From Ostreococcus lucimarinus (lineage: Eukaryota), in the NCBI GenBank assembly GCA_000092065.1, contig CP000583.1: a stretch of 64,000 nt of DNA. One strand, given 5' to 3'. The notes below the pieces were generated by a model. It had not been told where the DNA came from. It saw nothing but the letters and a program-made list of their open reading frames with translations, and ran no database searches. Every line of letters starts with the position of its first letter. Position 1 is the first letter of the stretch. This document shows, piece by piece, positions 4,165 to 64,000 of this stretch. A program made the translations under genes and the position numbers.

Positions 4165-6499
4165 ATGTTTCGCGCGGTCGCGCGCGCCTGCGCCCGGGCG
4201 CGATCGCGCGCGGACGCGCAAACGTGCGGTCGAACGCGCGCGCGCGACGAGTCGGCGGTGTGGACGTCGGTGCGCGCGACGACGCCGAGGTGTTGGCTCG
4301 GGACAAAGGTTGAACTCGCCGAAGACGACGGGACGAGCGCGAGCGCGAGAGAGGACAGCGCGAGAGAGCAGACGCTGCGCCGACGGCACGTGGCGAGCAT
4401 GCGACGCGCGCTTCGCGCGAATGATTTTGAGGGCGTGCGGAGAGAGTTTGAGGCGCTCGCGGCGTCGACGACGAAACCGGGACGCGCGGCGTGGAACGTA
4501 AACGTGCTCGCGGCGGCGCGAGCGCGAGAGCCCGAGGCGGCGCTGTCGATCGTCGAGTCAATGCTCGCGGATAATATCGGACCGGATGTGAGCACGCACA
4601 CGGCGGTGATGCAGGCTTACGTGCGCGCGGGACGATACGGGGACGCGTTTAACTGGTTGAAGATGCACCTGTACGGCGTACCGAAGGACGTTGAACAAGG
4701 CTTTGATGGCGAAGATAACGTAGAAATGGACACGAGGTATGATCTATCACATGTGATTGGGGACATGATCGATGGCGATGAGGAACACGTGTCGAAGACG
4801 CGCGTGAATAGCATGATGTTTACAACCGTGATGAACGGCGCGGCAAAGGCGGGCGACCGAGCAACGGTGCAAGAAATCGAGACGATGATGTTTGAGTTCG
4901 ATGTGGCACCTTTAGCAGATACGTTACACTGTTTGCTCAAGCTCGAGCGCGTCGCGGGGACGAGTGCATCGGTGGAATCTGTGTGGGATCGTTCCAAGCT
5001 CAAAGCGCGCGCGTTGAAAGCACATCAAGAACGCGTCGTCGCTCACGCGTTTCTGGGTCGCCAAAGAACGCAGCGCGCCGCCGAATCGCGTGCGCTCGCA
5101 GTGAAAGCATTAGAAGATCTGTACGATCGCGTGGGTCGGAAGCGCTCGGACGAAGACTTTGCGAAGCTGGAGAAGAACAATCATTCAGGGTCGAGATATG
5201 CTCGCTGGACCGGCGAACGTGGTTTAGAAGAGTACCGAAACAACTTGGTGAGCGACGACGATATCAAGAAAGTCGGAACGAAGGAAGTTTTAATAGCCAC
5301 GAACGCCGTGATGCTCGCGCATGCTGCGGTCGGTGACACGGACACAGTCAATACATGGTTTGTTCGAATGGAAGAGGATTTGGGCATCAACGCAGACGTG
5401 CGAACGTTCAACGCAGTACTACGCGCCGAATACATGCGAGATAAGATAAAGCTCGGTGTCGTGGATCATGAGCAAGCAATGATGCGATTTCAAGAAGTGA
5501 TGCTTGCGATGGAAGATCGAGAAGTCGAGCCGACGACGTACACGTTTTCGACACTTCTCTTGGCGCACGCAGAACAAAGCCACTTACCCGGTGTCGCAGA
5601 GGTTTTGAAGCTCATGCAAGAGCGAGGACTCGCGCTTGATACTACGATGTACAATATTTTATTGGGTGCTTGCGCGCGAGCGGGTGATTTAGACGCTGCG
5701 CTCAACGCGCGGGCAAGCATGGTCAAGTCTGGCATTGCCGCCGGCCCAGACACGTTCGTGCCGCTCTTCGCCGCGTGCACGAAACAGGCGGAGGAACTGG
5801 ACTTGGACGGTGATATGTTTGAATTAGATGAAGAAGTCGTTGGACCTCTGTTAGATCGCACACGAGCGACTTTAGATAGCGTGGAGTTGGATATGCTCTC
5901 AAGCAACGTCGAGCACAACACGCAGTCGTTCACGGCTTTGGTCAAAGCCAGAGGGGCTTTGGGTCAGCCAGACGCCGTGTTCGACATGATCAGCGAATTG
6001 CCAGAAAACATCGAACTCGACGAAGTCGCCATCGGCCTGAGTGTTTTGGCGGTTGCGAAGCGTGAACCAACCAAGGCTATTGCGCTCGCCGATTCCCTCA
6101 TGGACGAGTCGATGGTGCTGGATCCGTGGCTTCTCAACTGCATCATCACCGCTTACTCTCATCTCGGTCAAATCAAAGCAGCTACCGAGCGCGTGCAAGA
6201 CTTCATCAAGCGAGGCGGTGTGCCGACTGTCGCAACGTACAACGCGCTCTTCCGATGCGCCGCCCAGAGCGGCAGCTTTGCCGAATACGCCCCGCTCGTC
6301 ATGAACGAGATGTCATCGCGCGATCTCAAACCGGACAAGTACACTCGCAAATTTATCGCTGCTGTCACCGCCGGTTCATCCGTCCTCGATCGCGAGACGG
6401 CGGAAGCGCTTCTCAAAAAGTGTCCCGGCGGCGACAAGTTCTTCGTCGCCGAAGACGCCGCCGGACAGGACGACTTCGATTTCCTCGCCGACGCCGGCT

Positions 6500-8727: not shown

Positions 8728-10614
8728 ATGGACTCCAAGTGGTTCACGCGCGATGTCGCGGAGCTGAGGACCTGGCGAATCATCGGCGCGTGCGCGTGGT
8801 CCACGCTCGCTATTTTCGTCGCCGTACGTCGCGCTCGCGTCGATTTGATTTCGATTTCGCCAACGTCCGCATTTGATTCTCGACGAAGGCGACGACTGAC
8901 GGAGCGCCATCGCGACGCGCGCGCACAGGCATACGCATACTTCACGTGTGTACACATTCTTGGTGGTGACTTCCCGCACTGGTCGCGCGTGGCCGTGGCG
9001 TTGACGTACGCGGCGACGCAACTGCCAGCGAGCGCGGCGACGGCGATGTGCGCGAGAGCGAGCACGGCTGATTTCGTGCCGAACGGCGAAAGGGACGCGT
9101 GTGGAATCGTGCGAGGGGAGAGAATCGGTGAACGGTTCGCAACGGCGATGATGCGGGATGGGATGACGATCGGGGCGTTGGGCGGCGCGTTTGCATGCTC
9201 GGGGAGTTTGGCGTGCTCGCTCGCAGCGAGGACGACGCCGACGCGGGGCTTGGTGGGGATGATGACGGTGAACGCGTCCGACGCTACGTTCGCAGCGCAA
9301 TTTGGCTGTGTGTTGGGGGTGATGACAGTGGTGAACTTTTGGTTCAACGATGGTTTGGTGGTGAAGTTTTCATCGGTGCAGCGACCGCGCGGGTTGCGGT
9401 TGAAACGCGCATTTGCGCCGTGCGCTCTAAGTGGATTGAAGCGTTCCCTTTATGCGTGCGTGGTGCATATTTTGGTGGTAATTGCGAGTCGATTCCTCGT
9501 CCAGCTCAGCGCGAAATCGTCTCGAGGTTTGTTCTTGGGGTCGATGTCGTGTTGGGGCGCTGGGGCGCTCGCGAGCGCTTCGTGGGCGCTCGCAATTTTC
9601 TGCGCCGAGATCGTGCACACCGAGCGCTATGAGTTCAGACCGCAAAGTTTGACGCAAGGTCCGAAAGTTGCGAGCGAACCTCTGATGGCGGCTTTGCATT
9701 ATTTCGAAGTTCCGTTCGTGCAGCACTTGGCGTTTGCAGACTTGTGCAACGTCGCCGAGAGCGGTGGACGCGGACGGCGCCAGCTCATCTACGGCGATAC
9801 CCCCGATGCGGCGTGGTCTGTGGTGATATCGATCGCTCTCGCGCCGTTGGCATCGATTTCGCGTTCGGTGAACAAGGCGATGGACCGCACTATGTTGGCG
9901 GCGTTGCGAGACACGGATGCGGATGCGGCGCAAAGGATTAGTGAAAAGTACGCGCAAATGAATACGCCAAAGCCCAAATTTCGACACGAGAGCGCGCAGA
10001 CGCAACAAGCGTGGAATGCGTTGCGTCAAAGCGAGGTGCTCTCGACCGATGTTGCGGCGCGTGAGTTGTGCACGGTGGTCAAGGCGTACGGGCAATTGGC
10101 GATTTGGGGCGCGCGCGCTTCGTCTTCGCTCGCCGTCGCCGCGAAAAAGGAAGATGTTCGCGGAAACGCGCGTTCGATCAATCCGTCGCTCAGTGCGATT
10201 GTGCGAACGTTACTTACGGCACAATTAGCATGTCGGACGATCATCGAGCAAGGTTCTCCTCCCGTGCGCGCCTCCAGTGGGTTCACCTCTAGCGATTTGG
10301 CGTCGACGTCAAAGGCGAATTCCATCGTCGCGAAGCGAAACGAGATCATCAACAACGTCTTGTACGTTTTAGGAATCACCGCCACCAATAGAAATGATGC
10401 AAACGGTGCTGTGACGCCGGCTTTCACGCCCGCAGTGGAGACTGCGAAGAGAATATCGGACACCGTGGAGATCGCTTTGGGCGCGCTCGTCGTCGAGTAC
10501 GGCGACGACGTCAAAGTCATGCTTCGCGAATCCGAACAATTCGGGCCGCCAGAGTTCGGCACACCGAACGAGCTGTTTGATGCCTTAGAAACAATCGCCA
10601 CCGACTTGGCGTGA
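8728..10614 (+). CDS. Predicted multipass membrane protein of unknown function
   Basis: A 628-aa ORF with several hydrophobic segments (LAIFVAV, VVHILVVIASRFLV, WALAIFCAEIV) and an Ala-rich soluble C-terminal half. I recognised no family signature. Confidence 0.35.
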   Translation: MDSKWFTRDVAELRTWRIIGACAWSTLAIFVAVRRARVDLISISPTSAFDSRRRRRLTERHRDARAQAYAYFTCVHILGGDFPHWSRVAVALTYAATQLPASAATAMCARASTADFVPNGERDACGIVRGERIGERFATAMMRDGMTIGALGGAFACSGSLACSLAARTTPTRGLVGMMTVNASDATFAAQFGCVLGVMTVVNFWFNDGLVVKFSSVQRPRGLRLKRAFAPCALSGLKRSLYACVVHILVVIASRFLVQLSAKSSRGLFLGSMSCWGAGALASASWALAIFCAEIVHTERYEFRPQSLTQGPKVASEPLMAALHYFEVPFVQHLAFADLCNVAESGGRGRRQLIYGDTPDAAWSVVISIALAPLASISRSVNKAMDRTMLAALRDTDADAAQRISEKYAQMNTPKPKFRHESAQTQQAWNALRQSEVLSTDVAARELCTVVKAYGQLAIWGARASSSLAVAAKKEDVRGNARSINPSLSAIVRTLLTAQLACRTIIEQGSPPVRASSGFTSSDLASTSKANSIVAKRNEIINNVLYVLGITATNRNDANGAVTPAFTPAVETAKRISDTVEIALGALVVEYGDDVKVMLRESEQFGPPEFGTPNELFDALETIATDLA

Positions 10615-24520: not shown

Positions 24521-24605
24521 CGCTATGGTTCTACTTGTTTTTCTTTTTTCGTAAAGCATCGGCCGCTATGGTTCTAGTTGTTTTTCTTTTTTCGTAAAGC
24601 ATCGG
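24521..24605. repeat. Imperfect direct tandem duplication of a 42-bp AT-rich unit (one mismatch plus a 1-bp indel)
   Basis: Copy 1 cgctatggttctacttgtttttcttttttcgtaaagcatcgg and copy 2 ccgctatggttctagttgtttttcttttttcgtaaagcatcgg, read directly from the sequence. The pair overlaps the stop codon and 3' end of the minus-strand coiled-coil gene, about 125 bp downstream of the F-box gene stop. Confidence 0.85.
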
Positions 24606-25407
24606 CGCGCAGGTAACGCGCCTCGCGTCGCACGCGATCGAGAAGTATGTCCAACCGAGCGAGCTGCCGCTTTTCGTTCGCGATTGATTGGTTCACCCGT
24701 TCGCGAGCGTTCGTGAGGTCTGAAATCGACTCTTTGCTGCATTCCTGCATCTCCATCAGGTCTCTCTCGAGCAATCGAACGAAATCCGCGTCGAGCGACG
24801 ACGGTATCGCCGCCGCGGAGTCCTCGACCTCCGCCGCCGCCGCGCTCGCGGGGGCCTCCGCCGCCGTCTCCGCCGCCGTCTCCGCCGCCGTCTCCGCCGC
24901 CGCCTCCTCGACCGCCTCCTCGACCGCCGGCTTCTCCGCCGATTTCTTCTCCGCCGATTTCGCCTTCATCGCTCGCTCCGCCTTCACGCGCTCCATGATC
25001 AGCGCCACCTCCGAGTCGATCTTTTCCTTCTCGCGCGCCCGCTCCGCGCGCTGCCGCGCCTGCGCCCCCGCCAGCGCCTCCCGAAACGCGTCGTTGAAGT
25101 ACGGCGAGTCCTCAGCCGCGGCGACTAAATCCTCGATGTCCTCTCCCGCCGCCTCCGCCGCGCGCGGTCGCCCGTCGTCGTCGTCCCGCGCGTCGAAGAC
25201 GCCGTCGAAGAGGTCCCCCGCGCGTCGCCGCGGCGTCCTCGCGCGCGCGCGCGCGCGCCTCGCGCCCGGCGCGCGCGCGACCGCGACGCGCGGCGCGCGC
25301 GACGTCGCCCGCATGTCCTCGCCGCGCCGCGCGCGCGGTGTCGGCGCGCGCGCGAGTGAAGGCGCGACCGGCGGTCGGTCGGACGCGGCGGCGAATGTTC
25401 CGCACAC
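24574..25407 (-). CDS. Hypothetical coiled-coil protein containing an (AAETA)n pentapeptide repeat
   Basis: Minus ORF with E/K/A-rich heptad-like sequence. Its 15-nt tandem repeat lies at about 24857..24901. The real start is probably an internal Met (MRATSRAPRV near 25314). The last codons sit inside a 42-bp tandem duplication. Confidence 0.4.
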   Translation of the reverse strand: MCGTFAAASDRPPVAPSLARAPTPRARRGEDMRATSRAPRVAVARAPGARRARARARTPRRRAGDLFDGVFDARDDDDGRPRAAEAAGEDIEDLVAAAEDSPYFNDAFREALAGAQARQRAERAREKEKIDSEVALIMERVKAERAMKAKSAEKKSAEKPAVEEAVEEAAAETAAETAAETAAEAPASAAAAEVEDSAAAIPSSLDADFVRLLERDLMEMQECSKESISDLTNARERVNQSIANEKRQLARLDILLDRVRREARYLRADALRKKKNN

Positions 25408-32625: not shown

Positions 32626-32953
32626 CGACGCCCGCGCGTCGCTCGCCGCGCGCGGTCGCGCGTCGCGCGCCGTCGTCGTCTCTCGCGCCGCGCGCGCGCG
32701 CGGCTGTCGACGCGCGTTCGAACGCGCGACGGCCGACGCGCGACGCGCGCGCACGTGGGGTTCGCGCGAGCTCCGATGCGTGCGCGTCAACCAACCGAAT
32801 GTCCGAAATAAATACAGATTCAAAACAGCACGCGGACTGTTTGCGCGTGCGATGCACACGCGTCCGTGTTTCTTCGCGGCGCGCCCCCGAGACGCGACGC
32901 GCGCGCGGGCGCGCCGCGCCGTCGCCCTCTTTCGACGACGCGCGCGCGCGACC

Positions 32954-41118: not shown

Positions 41119-41778
41119 CGCGTCCCGTCCGCGGCGCGCGCGATCGAAAGAGTTCGCGCGTTCGTCGCCGATCGCTCGCGCGCGCGCGCTCGCGTCGCGC
41201 CGAGTCGCGTCGCGGTGCGTCGATCGATCGCTCCGACGCGCGCGCAGGGGGGGTGCGCGCGCGCGTCGACCGACGCGTCGATCGAATCGATCGCGCGGTC
41301 GGTCGTCGACCCGCGGTCGAGGGTCGCGCGATCGAGACGATCGACGACGCGAGGGTGACGCGCGTCGCGCGGTGATGTGTGTGGGTAAACAGTGCGAGGG
41401 TGGTTTCGGTCGATGCGTTGTGTGGGTAAACAGTGCGGCGTGGGTTTTCGTGGACACGCGCGCGAATGCGCGTCCGTCGTCGTCGACGGCGCCGGCACAC
41501 GGCGCGCGTCGTGGATGCGCGCGCGATCGACGGCGAGCGATCGCGGGACGGGCGCGACGAGGACGATCGCGCGAGGGCGCGCGCTGCGGCGCGCGCTGGC
41601 GCGCGCGGGGGGGGGGGGACGCGAAACGACCGCGGCGGGACGGCGCGACGGACGCGACGGCGTCGCGGGCGACGGGACGCGCAGGGCGGGGACGGCGCGC
41701 GCGCGGGCGGATTTCGAGAGCGCGGCGGAGACGGCGGCGGCGCGGGCGCGGCGCGCGAGGGTCGGGCGAGGCGGAGGG

Positions 41779-45568: not shown

Positions 45569-45907
45569 CGCGGCGCGACGTCCGGCGCCGGCGATTCGAC
45601 GGCGCCGCGCCGCGCGGTCGGTCGGTTCGCTTCAATACGACGCTCGATGGGACGGGCGTTTCGAGATCGTGGCCGCGTGACTGTTTGCGCACACGGAAAA
45701 GCGCGCGGGCCGGCGGCGTCGCCGGATCGATCGCTCGATCGCGTCGGCGTCGGCGGCTCGGCGGCGCGCGCGGCATCGCGCGACGCGCCGTCGGTCGTCG
45801 GAGGCGCGAAGGCGTGGACGCTCGACGCGCGGGACGCGACGTCGATCGGCGACGCGGCGCGGCGACGCGTTCGACGCGAGACGACGACGACGCGGGACGA
45901 CGGGACG

Positions 45908-48900
45908 ATGGCGCGCGAGGGCGCGATGGACGACGCGGCGACGGCGACGGCGACGGCGCTGATGGAGAGGGCGACGATCGATCCGGAGAAGGCGGCGAAG
46001 AAGGCGGCGAAGCTGGCGGAGAAGGAGGCGAAGAGGGCGAAGGCGGCGGCGAAGGCGGCGAAGGCGGCGGAGGAAAAGGCGAAGAGGGACGCGGGCGGCG
46101 GCGGCGAGGGCAAGGCGAAGAGGGAGAAGAAGGCGAGCGGGCCGAGCGAGGAGGACGTGCGAGCGCTGGAGAGCGCGCTGAAAACGCCGAGGGGGGAGAT
46201 GAAGGATTTGGTGGGGACGCCGATGGCGAAGTCGTATAATCCGGTGGCGGTGGAGGCGGCGTGGTACGACTGGTGGGAACGGTGCGGGATGTTTACGCCG
46301 ACGATGGGGACGAATAAGCCAAAGTTTGTCATCGTGATTCCGCCGCCGAACGTCACGGGTGCGTTGCACATTGGACACGCGCTGACGAACGCTATTCAAG
46401 ACACCATCGTGCGGTGGCGACGAATGCAGGGATATGAAGCGCTGTGGGTTCCGGGGACGGATCACGCGGGCATCGCGACGCAAACCGTGGTGGAGAAGAA
46501 ATTGCAGCGCGAGGAAGGCGTCACGAGGCACGATCTCGGGCGAGAAAAGTTCCTCGAGCGCGTGTTCGAGTGGAAAGACGTGTATGGGGGCAAGATCTGC
46601 AATCAGCTTCGCCGAATCGGCTCTTCTATGGACTGGACTCGAGAGGCGTTCACGATGGATGAAAAGTTGAGCAAAGCCGTCAAGGAAGCCTTCGTGCGCA
46701 TGTTCGACGAAGGTTTGATTTATCGCGACAATAGATTGGTGAACTGGAGTTGTCAGTTGAAGACTGCGATCAGTGATATCGAGGTGGATTACATCGAGCT
46801 CGATGGGCCGACGATGCTCGCGGTGCCGGGGCACACCAAAAAGGTGGAGTTCGGCGTCATCACATCCTTTGCGTACCCGTTCGAAGACGGGCAAGGCGAA
46901 GTTGTCGTGGCGACGACGCGTATTGAGACCATGCTTGGTGACACCGCTGTTGCGGTGCACCCCGAAGACGAACGCTACAAGAGCTTACACGGAAAATTCG
47001 TTCTTCACCCGTTCAACGGTCGTCGTATTCCCATCATTTGCGACGCCGAACTTGTCGACATGGAATTCGGTACAGGTTGCGTGAAGATCACCCCAGCCCA
47101 CGATCCGAACGATTTCAACACCGGTAAGCGTCACGATCTTGAGTTTATCAACGTATTCACCGAGGAAGGATTGGTGAACGAGCAAGGCGGCGAGCAATTC
47201 CAGGGCATGAAGCGCTTTGAGTGCCGCGTCGCCATCACGGAGGCGCTCGACAAGCTTGGTCTTTACCGGGGCAAGGCGAACAACCCGATGCGTTTGGGTC
47301 TTTGTAGCCGTAGTAAGGATGTCATCGAACCGATGCTCAAGCCGCAGTGGTGGGTCAATTGCCAAGACATGGCAAAGGAGGCGTGCGATGCCGCTCGCGA
47401 CAAGCGACTTGAAATTCTCCCTACTTTCATGGAACCGACGTGGTTCAGATGGTTGGAGAACATTCGTGACTGGTGCATCTCCCGTCAACTTTGGTGGGGT
47501 CATCGTATTCCAGCCTTCTACGTTCGTTTCGCCGGCGAAGGTGACGACGACTGTGGGATGCCAGGCGGTAGCTCTGAGAAGATGGATCGATGGGTCATCG
47601 GTCGTGACGCCGATGAAGCGCGCGTTTCGGCCGAGAAGAAGTTCCCGGGTCGAGAATTCACACTCGAACAAGACGAAGACGTGCTCGACACTTGGTTCTC
47701 GTCCGGTTTGTTTCCGTTTTCCGTCTTTGGCTGGCCCGACGAGACACCGGATTTGGCCGAGTTTTACCCAACGTCCCTCCTCGAAACTGGACACGACATT
47801 TTGTTCTTCTGGGTCGCTCGTATGGTAATGATGGGCATGAAATTGACTGGTAAGGTGCCGTTCAAACAAGTGTACCTGCACGCCATGGTTCGTGACGCGC
47901 ATGGTCGTAAAATGTCAAAGTCTCTCGGTAACGTCATCGATCCTCTCCATGTCATTGAAGGTATCGACTTGGCCGCCCTCAACGAGACTCTCGTCGGCGG
48001 TAACCTCGACGAGAAGGAACGCAAAAAGGCGCAAGCGGGTCAAAAGGCTGACTTCCCCGATGGCATTCCAGAATGTGGGACCGATGCTATGCGCTTCGCG
48101 CTCGTGTCTTACACCGCTCAAGGTCGTGACATCAACCTGGACGTTCTCCGTGTCGTTTCGTACCGCCACTGGTGTAATAAGCTTTGGAACGCGACTAAGT
48201 TTGCGATGATGAATTTGGGTGACGAATACGTGCCGCCGGCCGATTTCAACGCTACTTTCGATGTACAAAGTCTTCCGCTCGCGGCCAAGTGGGTTCTCAG
48301 CCGCTTGAATGCAACATGCGCGTCGACAAACGCGGGTATGGAAGTGTACGATTTTAACACCGCCACGAACTCTGTGTACGCGTTCTGGCAATACGAACTC
48401 TGTGACGTTTACATCGAGATCATCAAGCCTGTTATGAGTGGATCGGATGAAATGGCGAAGAAACAACTGCGAGATGCGCTTTGGATTTGCCTCGACGCTG
48501 GTTTGAGACTTCTCCACCCGTTCATGCCCTTCGTCACCGAAGAGCTCTGGCAGCGACTTCCGCGCACTCGCAATGAGAACACACCGAAGAGTATTATGAT
48601 TGCTGAGTACCCAGTCGCGGTCGATTCTTGGGCCAACGCCACGGCTGAGTCGCAGATGCAAATCATAATGGACTCTGTTAAGGCGTTCCGATCGTTGAAG
48701 TCCAACTACAACCTTCCTCCCAGAGCGAGACCGGATGTTTTCTACAGTGTCAAGACGGATGACAGCGAAGCGGCGATGAAGATTGATCCAGAAGGTTTGG
48801 TCTCTCTCGCGGGCGTCGGTGAGTTGAAACAGCTGGCTCAAGGTGAATCTGCGCCGCCGGGTTGCGCGGTGAGCATCGTGAACGAGTCCGTGACGGTCTA

Positions 48901-50843: not shown

Positions 50844-50950
50844 CGTCGCGCGAACGCCGCGCGCGACGGCGCGGGACGCGAGCGTCGCGCGCGCGCGCGA
50901 GTGACGGTGGCGATCCGTCGCGCGGACGGCCCGTGTGCCGTTGGGCGTCC

Positions 50951-51062
50951 GACCGACCGCGCATGCTTCACATCCGCCGGACTGTTTGCGCGTACGAAAA
51001 CGCGTCCGGTCGGTCGCATGGACGGTCCGACCGACCGCGCGTTTACACTGTTTGCGCGTACA
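50951..51062. promoter_or_regulatory. Imperfect tandem repeat (two copies, about 66 bp apart) in the bidirectional DnaJ / RPT2 promoter, each containing CCGACCGACCGCGC .. ACTGTTTGCGCGTAC
   Basis: ccgaccgaccgcgc occurs twice and actgtttgcgcgtac twice (50981..50995 and 51047..51061), between the divergent start codons at 50843 (minus strand) and 51224 (plus strand). Confidence 0.5.
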
Positions 51063-51223
51063 GACATACGAACACGCCCGCGCCGGCCGTTCGGTCAAAC
51101 GCGCGGGCCGATCTCGCGCGCGCGCGCCACACGGCGACGCGTCTCGACGCGCGACGGCGACGGCGCGAGCGACGGCGCGAGCGACGGCGACGATCGACGC
51201 GCGACGCGCGCGCGCGAGCGAAC

Positions 51224-52555
51224 ATGGGCCAGGGACAGAGCGCGGACGGCGGCGACGGCGCCGACGGACGCCACGGCCGGGGCAAGAAGAAGGAAAAGAA
51301 GAAGTACGTCCCGCCCGCGCCGCCGATGCGCGTGGGAAAGAAGAAGAAGAAGACCGGGATCGAGGGCAGCACGCGATTGCCGAACGTCGCGCCGCAGTCG
51401 AAGTGTAAGCTGCGGATGCTGAAGCTGGAGCGGGTGAAGGATTATTTGCTGATGGAGGAGGAGTTCGTGGGGAATCAGGAGCGGTTGAAGCCGCGAGAGG
51501 AGCGGGACGAGGACGAGCAGAGCAAGATTGACGAGATGCGGGGGGCGCCGATGAGCGTGGGGTCGTTGGAGGAGATCATCGATGACACGCACGGGATCGT
51601 GTCGTCGTCGATCGGGCCGGAGTATTACGTGAACATCGCGTCGTTCGTGGACAAGAGTCAGCTCGAACCGGGGTGCGCGGTGCTGTTGCATCACAAGAAT
51701 TCTGCCGTCGTGGGGACTCTGGCGGACGACGTCGATCCCATGGTGAGCGTGATGAAGGTTGATAAGGCGCCGTTGGAGTCGTACGCCGATGTTGGGGGAT
51801 TAGAGGATCAGATTCAAGAGATCAAGGAAGCCGTGGAGTTGCCGCTGACGCACCCCGAACTGTACGAAGACATCGGCATCAAGCCGCCGAAAGGGGTGAT
51901 CTTGTACGGAGCTCCGGGAACTGGGAAGACGCTGTTAGCTAAGGCGGTGGCGAACTCAACGAGCGCGACTTTTTTGCGCATCGTTGGATCTGAATTGATT
52001 CAAAAATACTTGGGCGACGGCCCGAAGCTCGTGCGCGAGCTCTTCCGCGTCGCCGACGAGATGAGTCCCTCTATCGTTTTCATGGATGAGATCGACGCCG
52101 TCGGTACGAAGCGATACGATTCTCAATCGGGCGGCGAGCGCGAGATCCAACGTACGATGTTAGAGTTACTGAACCAGATGGATGGTTTTGACTCGCGCGG
52201 CGACGTCAAGGTCATCATGGCTACGAATAGAATCGAATCGCTCGACCCCGCGCTCTTACGCCCGGGTCGAATAGATCGAAAGATTGAATTCCCTTTACCG
52301 GACGTCAAGACAAAGCGACACATTTTCAACATTCACACCGGGCGCATGAACCTTTCCGCCGACGTACAGTTGGAGGAATTTGTCATGGCCAAGGACGAAC
52401 TCTCGGGCGCCGACATCAAGGCGCTTTGCACCGAAGCCGGTTTGCTCGCCTTACGTGAGCGCCGAATGCAAGTAACGCACGCCGACTTCAGCAAGGCTAA
52501 AGAAAAGGTTTTGTACAAGAAGAAGGAAGGCGTGCCGGAGGGAATGTTTACGTGA
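51224..52555 (+). CDS. RPT2: 26S proteasome regulatory ATPase subunit Rpt2 / PSMC1
   Basis: Near full-length colinearity with human PSMC1, including the N-terminal MGQGQS (myristoylation context), [19 protein letters not shown], Walker [16 protein letters not shown], Walker B FMDEIDA and the C-terminal hydrophobic-Tyr-X context. Start at ATG 51224. Confidence 0.95.
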
Positions 52556-55877: not shown

Positions 55878-55976
55878 GGCGTCGAAAAGTGCGGCCGCGG
55901 CGTCGACGTCGACGCGGGCGCGCGCGCGATGAAACGGTGGTCGAACTGTTTGGCTATAGGGGGATGGCGGACAAGG

Positions 55977-56999
55977 CTAGGACGCGCAACGCGCGGGAAA
56001 TCGTCGGTCGTGCTCGCGCGCGGTGGCGATCAAGTCCCCGGCGTCGCAGCGGAGGGCGAGCTTTTCGATCAACGCGCGCGCGCTGGTGAGCTGGGACTCG
56101 TAATCGGTGATGAGGGCGGCGACGGCGGCGTCGGCGCGAGACGCGCGCGCGTCGGAGGACGCGCGAGACGCGCGCTCGGAGACGAGAAGACGCTCGACGC
56201 GAGCGAGACGAGCGGAGACGCCCTCGGCGTGACGCTTGATGAGACTCATCTGGCGCTCGCGGCGGGCGACGTCGGCGAGTTTGACGGTCACGGCGTCGCG
56301 CTCGAGGGTGACGGCGCGAAGCGCGCGGCGGAGGCGCGGCGACTCCTCGTTCGCGTCCGAGACCTCGTTCGCGGACAGCCTCTCGGCGAGCTCGAGGTGA
56401 CGGCACTCTCGTAACGCGAAGTTTTCTTTCCCGAGTCGATCGATCTCGTCGTCGTACGACTCGAACACGCCCAACCATCGCTCTGGGACGTCGCGGCGCA
56501 ACTGTTTGCACCGCTCTCGCCACTCGTTCGCCGTCGATCGCGCATCTTCCACCGCTTCCCACGCCTCGGCGTCTCGCTTCGATCGATCCGCTTCTAATTC
56601 ATCTAACTTCATCTCCACTCGAGCGCGCGCGCGCTGCTCTTCGCGGAGTAAACGTAAGAGCGTCTCCGGCGTCTCGAGCGCGCGCGGTCGCGGACTCGAA
56701 TTCGCCCCCGCGTCCTCCCTCCGCGTCTCTTTTCGCCGTCTCCCTCCCTCCCGCGACGCGAACGCCTCGAACGCGCGCTCGAACGTTTCGTCCTCCTCGA
56801 CGTCGAGCTCGCTCGCCGGCGCCGCGCGCTCGGCGCGAGGAATCCGAACGCGCTCGACGAGCTCGCGCAAATCTTTTGCAACGTTCGGCGACTTTAAACT
56901 CGTCGACGTCGACGCCTCGCTCGCCTCGTTCGCGCGCTCGCGCGTGAGTTCGTCGTAAAGCGCATCGAAGGTTTCCGACGACGACTTCGCGCGCGGCAT
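55977..56999 (-). CDS. Hypothetical coiled-coil protein
   Basis: A 340-aa ORF dominated by E/R/A/L heptad-like sequence. No domain recognised. Its composition is distinct from the R-rich antisense artefacts. Confidence 0.35.
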   Translation of the reverse strand: MPRAKSSSETFDALYDELTRERANEASEASTSTSLKSPNVAKDLRELVERVRIPRAERAAPASELDVEEDETFERAFEAFASREGGRRRKETRREDAGANSSPRPRALETPETLLRLLREEQRARARVEMKLDELEADRSKRDAEAWEAVEDARSTANEWRERCKQLRRDVPERWLGVFESYDDEIDRLGKENFALRECRHLELAERLSANEVSDANEESPRLRRALRAVTLERDAVTVKLADVARRERQMSLIKRHAEGVSARLARVERLLVSERASRASSDARASRADAAVAALITDYESQLTSARALIEKLALRCDAGDLIATAREHDRRFPARCAS

Positions 57000-62720: not shown

Positions 62721-63404
62721 TTAGTCCTTGCCCGTGGCAGAAGTGATGTCGTGAATACTCGACCTTCGCTTATTATCCTTCTTGCTCATGCTGTTAAGCC
62801 TGATGAAGTATTTCTGAGCGTGGGATGCCACTTGAGTGGGCGTTCGTGAGATGACAAAGTTTCTGCTGATACTTCGCCAATCTCCCTTGCCGAACTTGTT
62901 CAAACCGAGAAGGAACAATTTGTGCTCTTCTTCAGTCCATGGAACGCCTTTGCGACGCTCTTGTTCGCCAGTCTTAGGGGCAGCTTTGGACTTTTTCGCC
63001 GCCGGCGCCTGCACGGGCGCGGGCGCCGGCGTTGGCGGCGGAGCCGTCGCCTTGAGAGGTTTCGCCGGCGCAAAGTTGAAGCTCACTTCCGCGGTGACGT
63101 GGTGATCACTGTCATCGTCATAGTCTGGAAGCTGTACGAGACCAGCTTCGATATTTCGCACGTCTTCTTCCAACTTGCTGAATCGATTCTTCAAGTCGTG
63201 GACGCCCTTTTGCGGCATCTGTTCTTGAAGTTGGCCCCAGTAATCATCGCCCGTGATGGGCCAAGACCCATCGTACTGCGCCAAACTCGTTTCAAAGAAT
63301 TTGTCCTCCTCAAACGTCCAGCTCACCGAGTCGCTCCCGAGCAACCCGAGGTTAGCGTACGTGAAACCGGCGTCGCCGCCGTAGCCAAAATCCAACGTCG
63401 ACAT
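62721..63404 (-). CDS. R-R-type MYB transcription factor (DIVARICATA-like; SANT plus SHAQKYF-class MYB)
   Basis: N-terminal SANT/MYB ([16 protein letters not shown]) and a C-terminal MYB with the diagnostic SHAQKYF ([48 protein letters not shown]). Confidence 0.8.
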
Positions 63405-64000
63405 GTTCGGCGTTTGTCGTTAATTTAATGAAGGTGAGAAAATGTGCGTTCGGTCGTCGAACAATGTGTTCGCTCGATCGATCTAGATGTGGTTCCTTAC
63501 GACGACAACGCGACTAGACCCGACGTCTAGCGCAAAAAATTGATATCAATCACTCGTCCGTCCTCTGTCGTTCGCGCGCGCGCCACGTGTCGTCAGTCAC
63601 TTCGCACTGTTTACCCATACGCCAATTTGGGATCTGATCTCGGTTCGTTCGCCTTCGCCGACCCTCCACGAGTCGAAACTCAAGAAATGACCCCCCGCCC
63701 CGGGAAAATCCCAGTGAAATCTTTCCGGGTGTCCGCGCGTTCGGTCCCCCGTTTCGAGGTTACCGCCGACGCCCGCCCCCCCCCCGCGCGCGCGTCGCCG
63801 CGTCCCGCCCCCCCCGCGCGCGCGATCGACGCTCAATCTTTCCCTCCACCGTTTCCGATCGTCTCCCAGGGCTCACCGCGTTCGCGCGCGCGTCCCCACC
63901 GCCCGCGCGCCGTCGCGAAATCCCGAGGGCGCGTCGCGTCTGATTCCGTTGCCGCACCTCGTCGCGACGCGTTCGCGCGTCGCGCGTCGCGCCTTTTCGC

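Follow-up and report, generated by a model that had tools for sequence, protein, structure and literature searches.

A non-palindromic element of about 15-19 bp, with the consensus ACTGTTT-RCSC-RYRC, was found to recur in a subset of bidirectional promoters of Ostreococcus lucimarinus and to reappear upstream of genes in a second lineage of related algae. From comparison of its copies, the element is probably a directional, promoter-proximal candidate binding site for one DNA-binding protein in the Mamiellales. The smallest free-living eukaryotes belong to Ostreococcus and its relatives, which are also major primary producers in the sea. The spacers of these algae measure about 200-400 bp and, as far as we found, hardly any experimentally defined cis-elements are available for them; a rigid 15-nt word on a subset of bidirectional promoters would give a handle on transcription in such a compact genome. 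Its recurrence across families and its variation in copy number among strains make it a ready probe for finding the factor and a possible building block of synthetic promoters. The element also provides a clean case of how high-information sites arise in several adjacent promoters of one species, although general principles are left unchanged by it. The element appears to be undescribed in the literature searched: no description of it was found in work on Ostreococcus cis-elements, and the words themselves matched primers only.

Positions given without a locus prefix refer to the window, meaning the whole 64,000-nucleotide stretch of DNA that was analysed. Within it, the 11-mer ACTGTTTGCGC was present in four exact copies, at 32836, 45680, 50981 and 51047, all on the + strand. 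Only 0.05 copies were expected, and none of 100 dinucleotide shuffles reached four. The recurrent word that a preliminary description of this DNA had reported at four sites was therefore real and in excess of what base composition predicts; three of its coordinates were correct as given, while the second (45679) was one base off. The inverted variant mentioned in the same description was also present, on the - strand, and belongs to the same family as the ACTGTTTGCGC copies, all of them fitting the 15-nt pattern ACTGTTTRCSCRYRC. This pattern had seven perfect sites in the window and no additional site at one mismatch, and so represents a discrete class of sites rather than the tail of a composition effect. 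The next-best matches carried two mismatches and lay in coding sequence. An expectation of 0.26 was calculated for ACTGTTTRCSCRYRC, which is indicative only, as the pattern was built from the same seven sites; the 11-mer statistic is independent of that. Alignment of the copies revealed that the one on the ValRS side (GCGC-ACAC) bridges the GCGCGTRC and ACCCAYAC forms of the element, the latter being referred to below as the B form. The copies and the features associated with them are as follows:

32836..32850, + strand: A-form copy ACTGTTTGCGCGTGC in the 329-bp ORC5/RPS6 divergent spacer, 105 nt 5' of the RPS6 ATG and about 80 nt 5' of a TOP-like CCCTCTTTC tract
41378..41396, - strand: 19-nt block CGCACTGTTTACCCACACA holding the first B-form copy, sense to the aminotransferase (ALT) gene
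41379-41393, - strand: first B-form copy, ACTGTTTACCCACAC, in the ALT/CCA-enzyme divergent spacer
41420-41434, - strand: second B-form copy, also ACTGTTTACCCACAC, within the 19-nt block 41419..41437 and 41 bp from the first
45613..45705, + strand: 93-bp unit, variable in number (VNTR), which starts with GGTCGGTCGG and ends just past the ValRS-side motif
45680..45694, + strand: copy ACTGTTTGCGCACAC in the 340-bp POP1/ValRS divergent spacer
50947..50962, + strand: companion word GTCCGACCGACCGCGC, the reverse complement of which contains GGTCGGTCGG, repeated identically at 51025-51040
50981..50995, + strand: copy ACTGTTTGCGCGTAC in the DnaJ-like/RPT2 divergent spacer, with an extended match ending in CGAAAAC
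51047..51061, + strand: identical second 15-mer of the DnaJ-like/RPT2 spacer, 66 bp downstream of the first
62721-63404, - strand: DIVARICATA-like MYB gene, downstream of the B-form copy at 63606
63606-63620, + strand: B-form copy ACTGTTTACCCATAC within a long non-coding stretch, 202 nt 5' of the MYB gene

As two pairs of these sites lie in local duplications, the seven represent five independent loci. The shorter matches to ACTGTTTGC, at 4928 and 56501, fall in coding sequence, and the one at 56501 is conserved as coding in orthologues.

All seven sites are intergenic according to an approximate gene table, in which intergenic DNA makes up 12.4% of the window. Spacers containing the motif comprised four of the 11 divergent ones in the window, none of the 14 tandem ones and none of the 11 convergent ones, which bore out the idea of a shared element confined to 5' intergenic DNA. 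The further statement that every copy found sits in a bidirectional promoter held for six of the seven; the copy at 63606-63620, in its long non-coding stretch, had been missed. The four motif promoters are consecutive large divergent spacers, from 32.6 to 51.2 kb. Distances from the motif to flanking start codons in the window ranged from 105 to 386 nt, and those to the ATG of the gene in sense, which were variable between promoters, from about 100 to 340 nt. Searches against Pfam confirmed the motif-flanking genes as ORC5, RPS6, a class I/II aminotransferase, a CCA-type nucleotidyltransferase, POP1 (POPLD domain), ValRS, DnaJ (a weak match) and RPT2, and also gave identities to most other genes of the window. 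The window ValRS was 100% identical to proteins in NCBI, JGI and Tara assemblies, 87% identical to that of O. tauri and 69% identical to that of Bathycoccus prasinos, and gene order was kept across the Ostreococcus and Bathycoccus loci carrying these ValRS relatives.

A coding origin of the sites was considered and rejected. An in-frame ATG at 45647 is where gene callers begin ValRS; the O. tauri ValRS (1076 aa), however, differs little in length from the window product read from the ATG at 45908 (1074 aa), and in BLAST the O. tauri and window proteins aligned only from residue 57 on. The RPT2 product at 51224 starts MGQGQS, the glycine at position 2 being what we take to be expected of the true RPT2 start. 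With the ValRS length match and this RPT2 start, the motif sites were judged not to be coding. Neither Rfam at the gathering cut-off nor a tRNA scan detected an RNA gene in the window, in its extensions or in the related loci, and no match was obtained with Rfam at E<=5 across 32.5-51.3 kb.

Local duplications bearing the motif were observed in three of the four motif promoters. Within the 41-bp duplication of the ALT/CCA spacer, the 19-nt block TGTGTGGGTAAACAGTGCG is identical at 19 of 19 positions, and the other positions at 12 of 22. In the DnaJ/RPT2 spacer, the 15-mer and the 16-mer companion GTCCGACCGACCGCGC are each repeated perfectly, with a gap between them of 18 nt in one case and 6 nt in the other. 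Perfect blocks across an altered spacer are what selection on the blocks would produce. The companion word may, tentatively, be regarded as part of the element. A comparison of seven strains of the species (the window and L009-L014) showed variation at nearby spacer positions but none in the first RPT2 copy (50981) or in either ALT copy. The second RPT2 copy (51047) contained a C>T SNP in one strain, and an adjacent 8-bp indel was present in several. The 93-bp unit of the POP1/ValRS spacer is single in the window and repeated in tandem in other strains, with two copies in L011 and L014, three in L009 (L009:9782-10060) and at least two in L010, where it was counted across an assembly gap. Beyond about 19-20 nt the flanks of the aligned window copies are unrelated, with no extended similarity, and no terminal inverted repeats, target-site duplications or flanking repeats common to the sites were found. 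A hairpin or cruciform was also rejected as an explanation, the inverted repeat in question flanking the first RPT2-promoter copy only.

The 93-bp unit corresponds to 31 codons and includes both the motif and an ATG, and strains varying between one and three copies share an identical ValRS. As 93 is a multiple of three, a spurious upstream open reading frame remains open, and automated gene callers give ValRS products of 1151-1161 aa that start within the promoter.

In five other Ostreococcus clades and in Bathycoccus, none of the orthologous spacers (ALT/CCA, POP1/ValRS, DnaJ/RPT2 and ORC5/RPS6) contained the exact word. As the orthologous spacers of other clades could not be aligned with those of the window, k-mer and weight-matrix tests were used in place of alignment. 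A 20-nt weight matrix was built from eight copies of the window species and used to scan 19 orthologous spacers, 18 of which scored at background. The ALT/CCA spacer of the clade represented by L004-L006 contained a diverged copy, ACTGTTCGCCCACGC, with its strand matching that of the window copies and a score of 17.8 bits that was attained in none of 300 shuffles. TGTTTRC showed no enrichment as a general spacer word in the sister clades. The sites thus lack conservation in the promoters in which a classical footprint should appear. Further copies were located outside the orthologous promoters: a bZIP gene of another Ostreococcus clade is preceded by a perfect B-form copy (L263:13709-13728), and another such copy is present in the RPS4 divergent promoter of the window species (L256:1569-1588). 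The latter was the one site gained from about 28 kb of this species outside the window, for a total of about 92 kb examined. Absence from orthologous promoters, which the preliminary description had set against its own proposal, was therefore largely what was seen in Ostreococcus and Bathycoccus, but the word is kept at an orthologous promoter, that of a peroxiredoxin gene, in a second lineage that looks like Mamiellaceae.

This second lineage was reached through metagenome contigs, which were scanned with ACTGTTTGCGCGTNC, and viral contigs were scanned with both ACTGTTTGCGCGTNC and ACTGTTTACCCANAC. Almost only chance matches in bacteria and phages were returned from the viral contigs. The metagenome matches listed were likewise mainly bacterial chance matches; three contigs were alga-like (L192, L222 and L158), and the match in L205 was coding. 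In the alga-like contigs the gene downstream of the word encodes a plastid 2-Cys peroxiredoxin in L192, phytoene desaturase in L222 and, in L158, a protein whose N-terminus resembles a transit peptide; the word is always sense to the gene and about 135-200 nt 5' of the ATG. The L192 peroxiredoxin is 91% identical to P0258, which represents a 90%-identity cluster with Mantoniella antarctica among its members; its identity to the representative of the O. tauri protein's cluster is 85%. These values point to the Mamiellales as the source of contig L192, and within them probably to the Mamiellaceae (the Micromonas/Mantoniella family). The orthologous peroxiredoxin/TPI locus of a related, intron-rich species that likewise looks like Mamiellaceae was available as L264, the spacer of which could not be aligned with that of L192. 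The sole word of at least 10 nt common to the two spacers was TGACTGTTTGCGC, sense to the peroxiredoxin gene in both and located 201 nt (L192) and 335 nt (L264) 5' of the ATG. In a single test fixed beforehand, the motif was found in none of 2000 spacer shuffles. This shared word is the strongest evidence that the element may be functional rather than a quirk of a single genome. In L222 and L158, a CCAAT-box word, GGCCAATC, lies about 30 nt downstream of the motif.

Being non-palindromic, the element is directional, and a non-palindromic footprint of 15-19 nt suggests that the putative factor would contain several recognition modules, for example as a multi-repeat Myb/SANT or zinc-finger protein. 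The genes in sense to the motif are RPS6, ValRS, RPT2, the aminotransferase and peroxiredoxin, with ORC5, POP1, the DnaJ-like gene, the CCA enzyme and TPI as their opposite partners; in most pairs the motif therefore faces the gene for which high expression would be expected, and a directional activator would be in keeping with this. We infer that a protein binds the site, that its action is directional and that transcription is affected: the motif would probably drive or organise transcription of the gene pointed at, these being RPS6, ValRS, RPT2 and the aminotransferase gene here and the peroxiredoxin and phytoene desaturase genes in relatives. Single sites would be gained and lost quickly between species, and local tandem duplication would supply extra copies, whose flanks would then decay while the motif block was kept. 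Counting against a binding site are the background scores of 18 of the 19 orthologous promoters, the 11-15 invariant positions, which are unusually rigid for a transcription-factor site, and the fact that a single functional theme is not evident in the flanking gene set. The growth-related theme previously assigned to these genes is suggestive only: RPS6, RPS4 (L256), ValRS and RPT2 agree with it, and the aminotransferase, MYB, bZIP, plastid peroxiredoxin and phytoene desaturase genes do not.

Several other explanations of the same sites were weighed. A short dispersed repeat of no regulatory function, spread by copying (as a mobile-element end, by template switching or by ectopic gene conversion) and marking unstable spacer DNA, would account for copies that are perfect over 11-15 nt, for their presence in four adjacent divergent promoters of one species only, and for motif-bearing duplications in three of the four promoters, including the 93-bp repeat with its one to three copies. 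We regard it as unlikely, given that similarity ends by about 19 nt with neither terminal inverted repeats nor target-site duplications, that the motif block is preserved while the flanks of duplicates decay, that the word is strictly absent from 3' spacers and coding DNA of the window, and that a second lineage has it again, its orientation unchanged, at an orthologous peroxiredoxin promoter. Point mutation would nonetheless hardly produce four flawless copies in adjacent promoters of a single species when all but one of the orthologous spacers are devoid of the motif; some form of copying is hinted at, and the duplications and the 93-bp repeat show that copying does act here. If the element belonged instead to the core promoter, the transcription start or the 5' untranslated region of the gene pointed at, its constant orientation to the peroxiredoxin gene in two species and its location 105-335 nt 5' of the sense ATG would be explained. 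The distances to the ATG are variable, however, and an upstream element would better explain promoters in which two copies lie 41-93 bp apart. A pyrimidine tract about 30 nt 5' of the RPS6 ATG (window about 32921-32929), kept in two other clades (L262 and L263) with the variants CCCTCTTTC, CCTCTTTCC and CCTCTTAAA, resembles the TOP start sites of ribosomal protein genes. TOP tracts mark the start of transcription in other ribosomal protein genes, and if the CCCTCTTTC tract marks that of RPS6, the motif lies about 80 nt upstream of the start. A core-promoter role is accordingly thought improbable. The binding-site reading was preferred to both.

The preliminary description had pointed to an E2F/DP cell-cycle site, on the grounds that the word lay one mismatch from the E2F consensus; the TTTGCGCG part would then bind E2F and couple these promoters to S phase. 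The motif does contain TTTGCGCG, and shares with E2F/DP sites (TTTSSCGC) a short T-run followed by a CG-rich core and a location in promoters; moreover, ORC5, a typical E2F target in other eukaryotes, flanks one site. The claimed proximity did not survive direct alignment, in which TTTGCGCG showed a one-base register shift and three mismatches to TTTSSCGC. No motif site matched this consensus on either strand, contradicting the proposal at the sequence level, and TTTSSCGC was not enriched in the window (33 occurrences against 36 expected), with none in the ORC5/RPS6 spacer. Furthermore, the invariant ACTGTTT half falls outside any E2F consensus, the B form TTTACCCA keeps this half but lacks the CGCG core, its ACCCAYAC part has no E2F counterpart, and ORC5 is the only flanking gene associated with replication or the cell cycle. 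An E2F site is, as a result, scarcely credible. SNAPc sites, like the motif, are long and directional, and a relative of the upstream sequence element (USE) of snRNA genes, bound by SNAPc at protein-coding promoters or at hidden small-RNA genes, was also considered. The USE consensus is CCCRTAA in O. lucimarinus and ACCCAYAW in Micromonas pusilla (Fajkus et al. 2021, PMC8287931, Table 1). The B form, as ACCCATAC or ACCCACAC, matches the Micromonas consensus at seven of eight positions and CCCRTAA at six of seven, and the two elements are both long, directional and promoter-proximal and come from the same algal group. The genes at the motif are protein-coding, however, with no snRNA or other Rfam family near any site in the window, its flanks and the related loci, even at E<=5, and no TATA box was seen at a fixed spacing when the sequence was read by eye; in addition, the A form GCGCGTAC is divergent and matches the USE poorly. 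This relationship is considered very unlikely. A broader version, in which a Mamiellales-wide 'promoter organiser', possibly of the SNAPc or Myb type and related to the snRNA USE system, would have been recruited to bidirectional promoters of protein-coding genes, its dosage tuned in wild populations by minisatellites that carry the motif (such as the 93-bp unit) and its new sites seeded by local copying instead of point mutation, is a doubtful proposition, and the candidate binding site of a single DNA-binding protein was retained as the best explanation.

Likenesses to other known elements were also noted. The yeast general regulatory factors Rap1 (ACACCCAYACAYY) and Reb1 (TTACCCG) act at ribosomal-protein and bidirectional promoters in a compact genome; their sites are long, rigid and directional and are bound by Myb-type proteins. 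The B-form ACCCAYACA resembles the Rap1 core by eye only, but yeast belongs to another kingdom and no homologous factor was identified, making this a functional analogy rather than membership. A perfect forkhead core (TGTTTRC; the consensus is RYMAAYA, i.e., TGTTTAC or TGTTTGC) is present in both forms of the motif, although conservation of the motif extends far past the 7-nt core on both sides and forkhead factors are not known from algae or green plants. Five of the six positions of CNGTTR, a plant MYB site, are likewise fitted by eye. The evening element is bound by a clock MYB. According to PMC2850359 (2010), the evening element of the O. tauri TOC1 promoter is conserved and was characterised by genetic transformation in Ostreococcus, and it is, like the motif, a short promoter word in a very compact genome. 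Its sequence is unrelated and is conserved with land plants, whereas no land-plant counterpart of the motif was identified.

Other words were observed in the same spacers. The word GGTCGGTCG, of (GGTC)n type, occurs six times in the window against 2.04 expected, always in intergenic DNA (25373, 41297, 45616, 50950, 51008 and 51028), and elsewhere at L001:5250, L263:767, L262:9957 and 13384, L004:19051, L007:14871 and L256:375-391. All copies from other Ostreococcus clades that were checked against gene calls were intergenic, including those in the orthologous ALT/CCA promoters; the word was not found in the Bathycoccus and Mamiellaceae-like loci. Three of the four promoters contain both this word and the main motif, and the 93-bp repeat unit begins with it. 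The copies at 41297, 45616 and 51008 are related to the companion word GTCCGACCGACCGCGC. A different word, GGTCAAACGCG, is common to the otherwise unalignable DnaJ/RPT2 spacers of three Ostreococcus clades (window about 51092-51102, L004 about 15283 and, inverted, L001 about 15217) and may represent a conserved footprint of the RPT2 promoter. In another clade, the ORC5/RPS6 spacer (L263, about 9936-9996) contains a tandem duplicate of GTTTACCACGGTTACGGGTGCGCA, which is loosely motif-like (TGTTTAC...). A partial copy of the motif, ACTGTTTGG, scoring 11.8 bits, is located at 55945-55953 in the tandem spacer that precedes the Thf1 gene; this copy is kept among strains and comprises the motif without its 3' half. 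The G-box CACGTG occurs at 32752-32757 and 63584-63589, 80 nt and 20 nt upstream of motif copies, respectively.

Two further observations concern the structure of the region. At 24521-24606, in a spacer between genes without assigned function, an AT-rich 43-bp unit occurs twice at 97% identity, unlike the CG-rich low-complexity repeats found elsewhere. Past the right end of the window, comparison of L255:1-9600 with L256:1-9600 revealed an identical MYB gene with wholly different upstream neighbourhoods, consisting of PPIP5K, patatin and EF-P genes in one assembly and RPS4, transaldolase, KH and OTU genes in the other. A structural variant at the long spacer beginning at 63405, or else a chimeric assembly there, accounts for this discrepancy.
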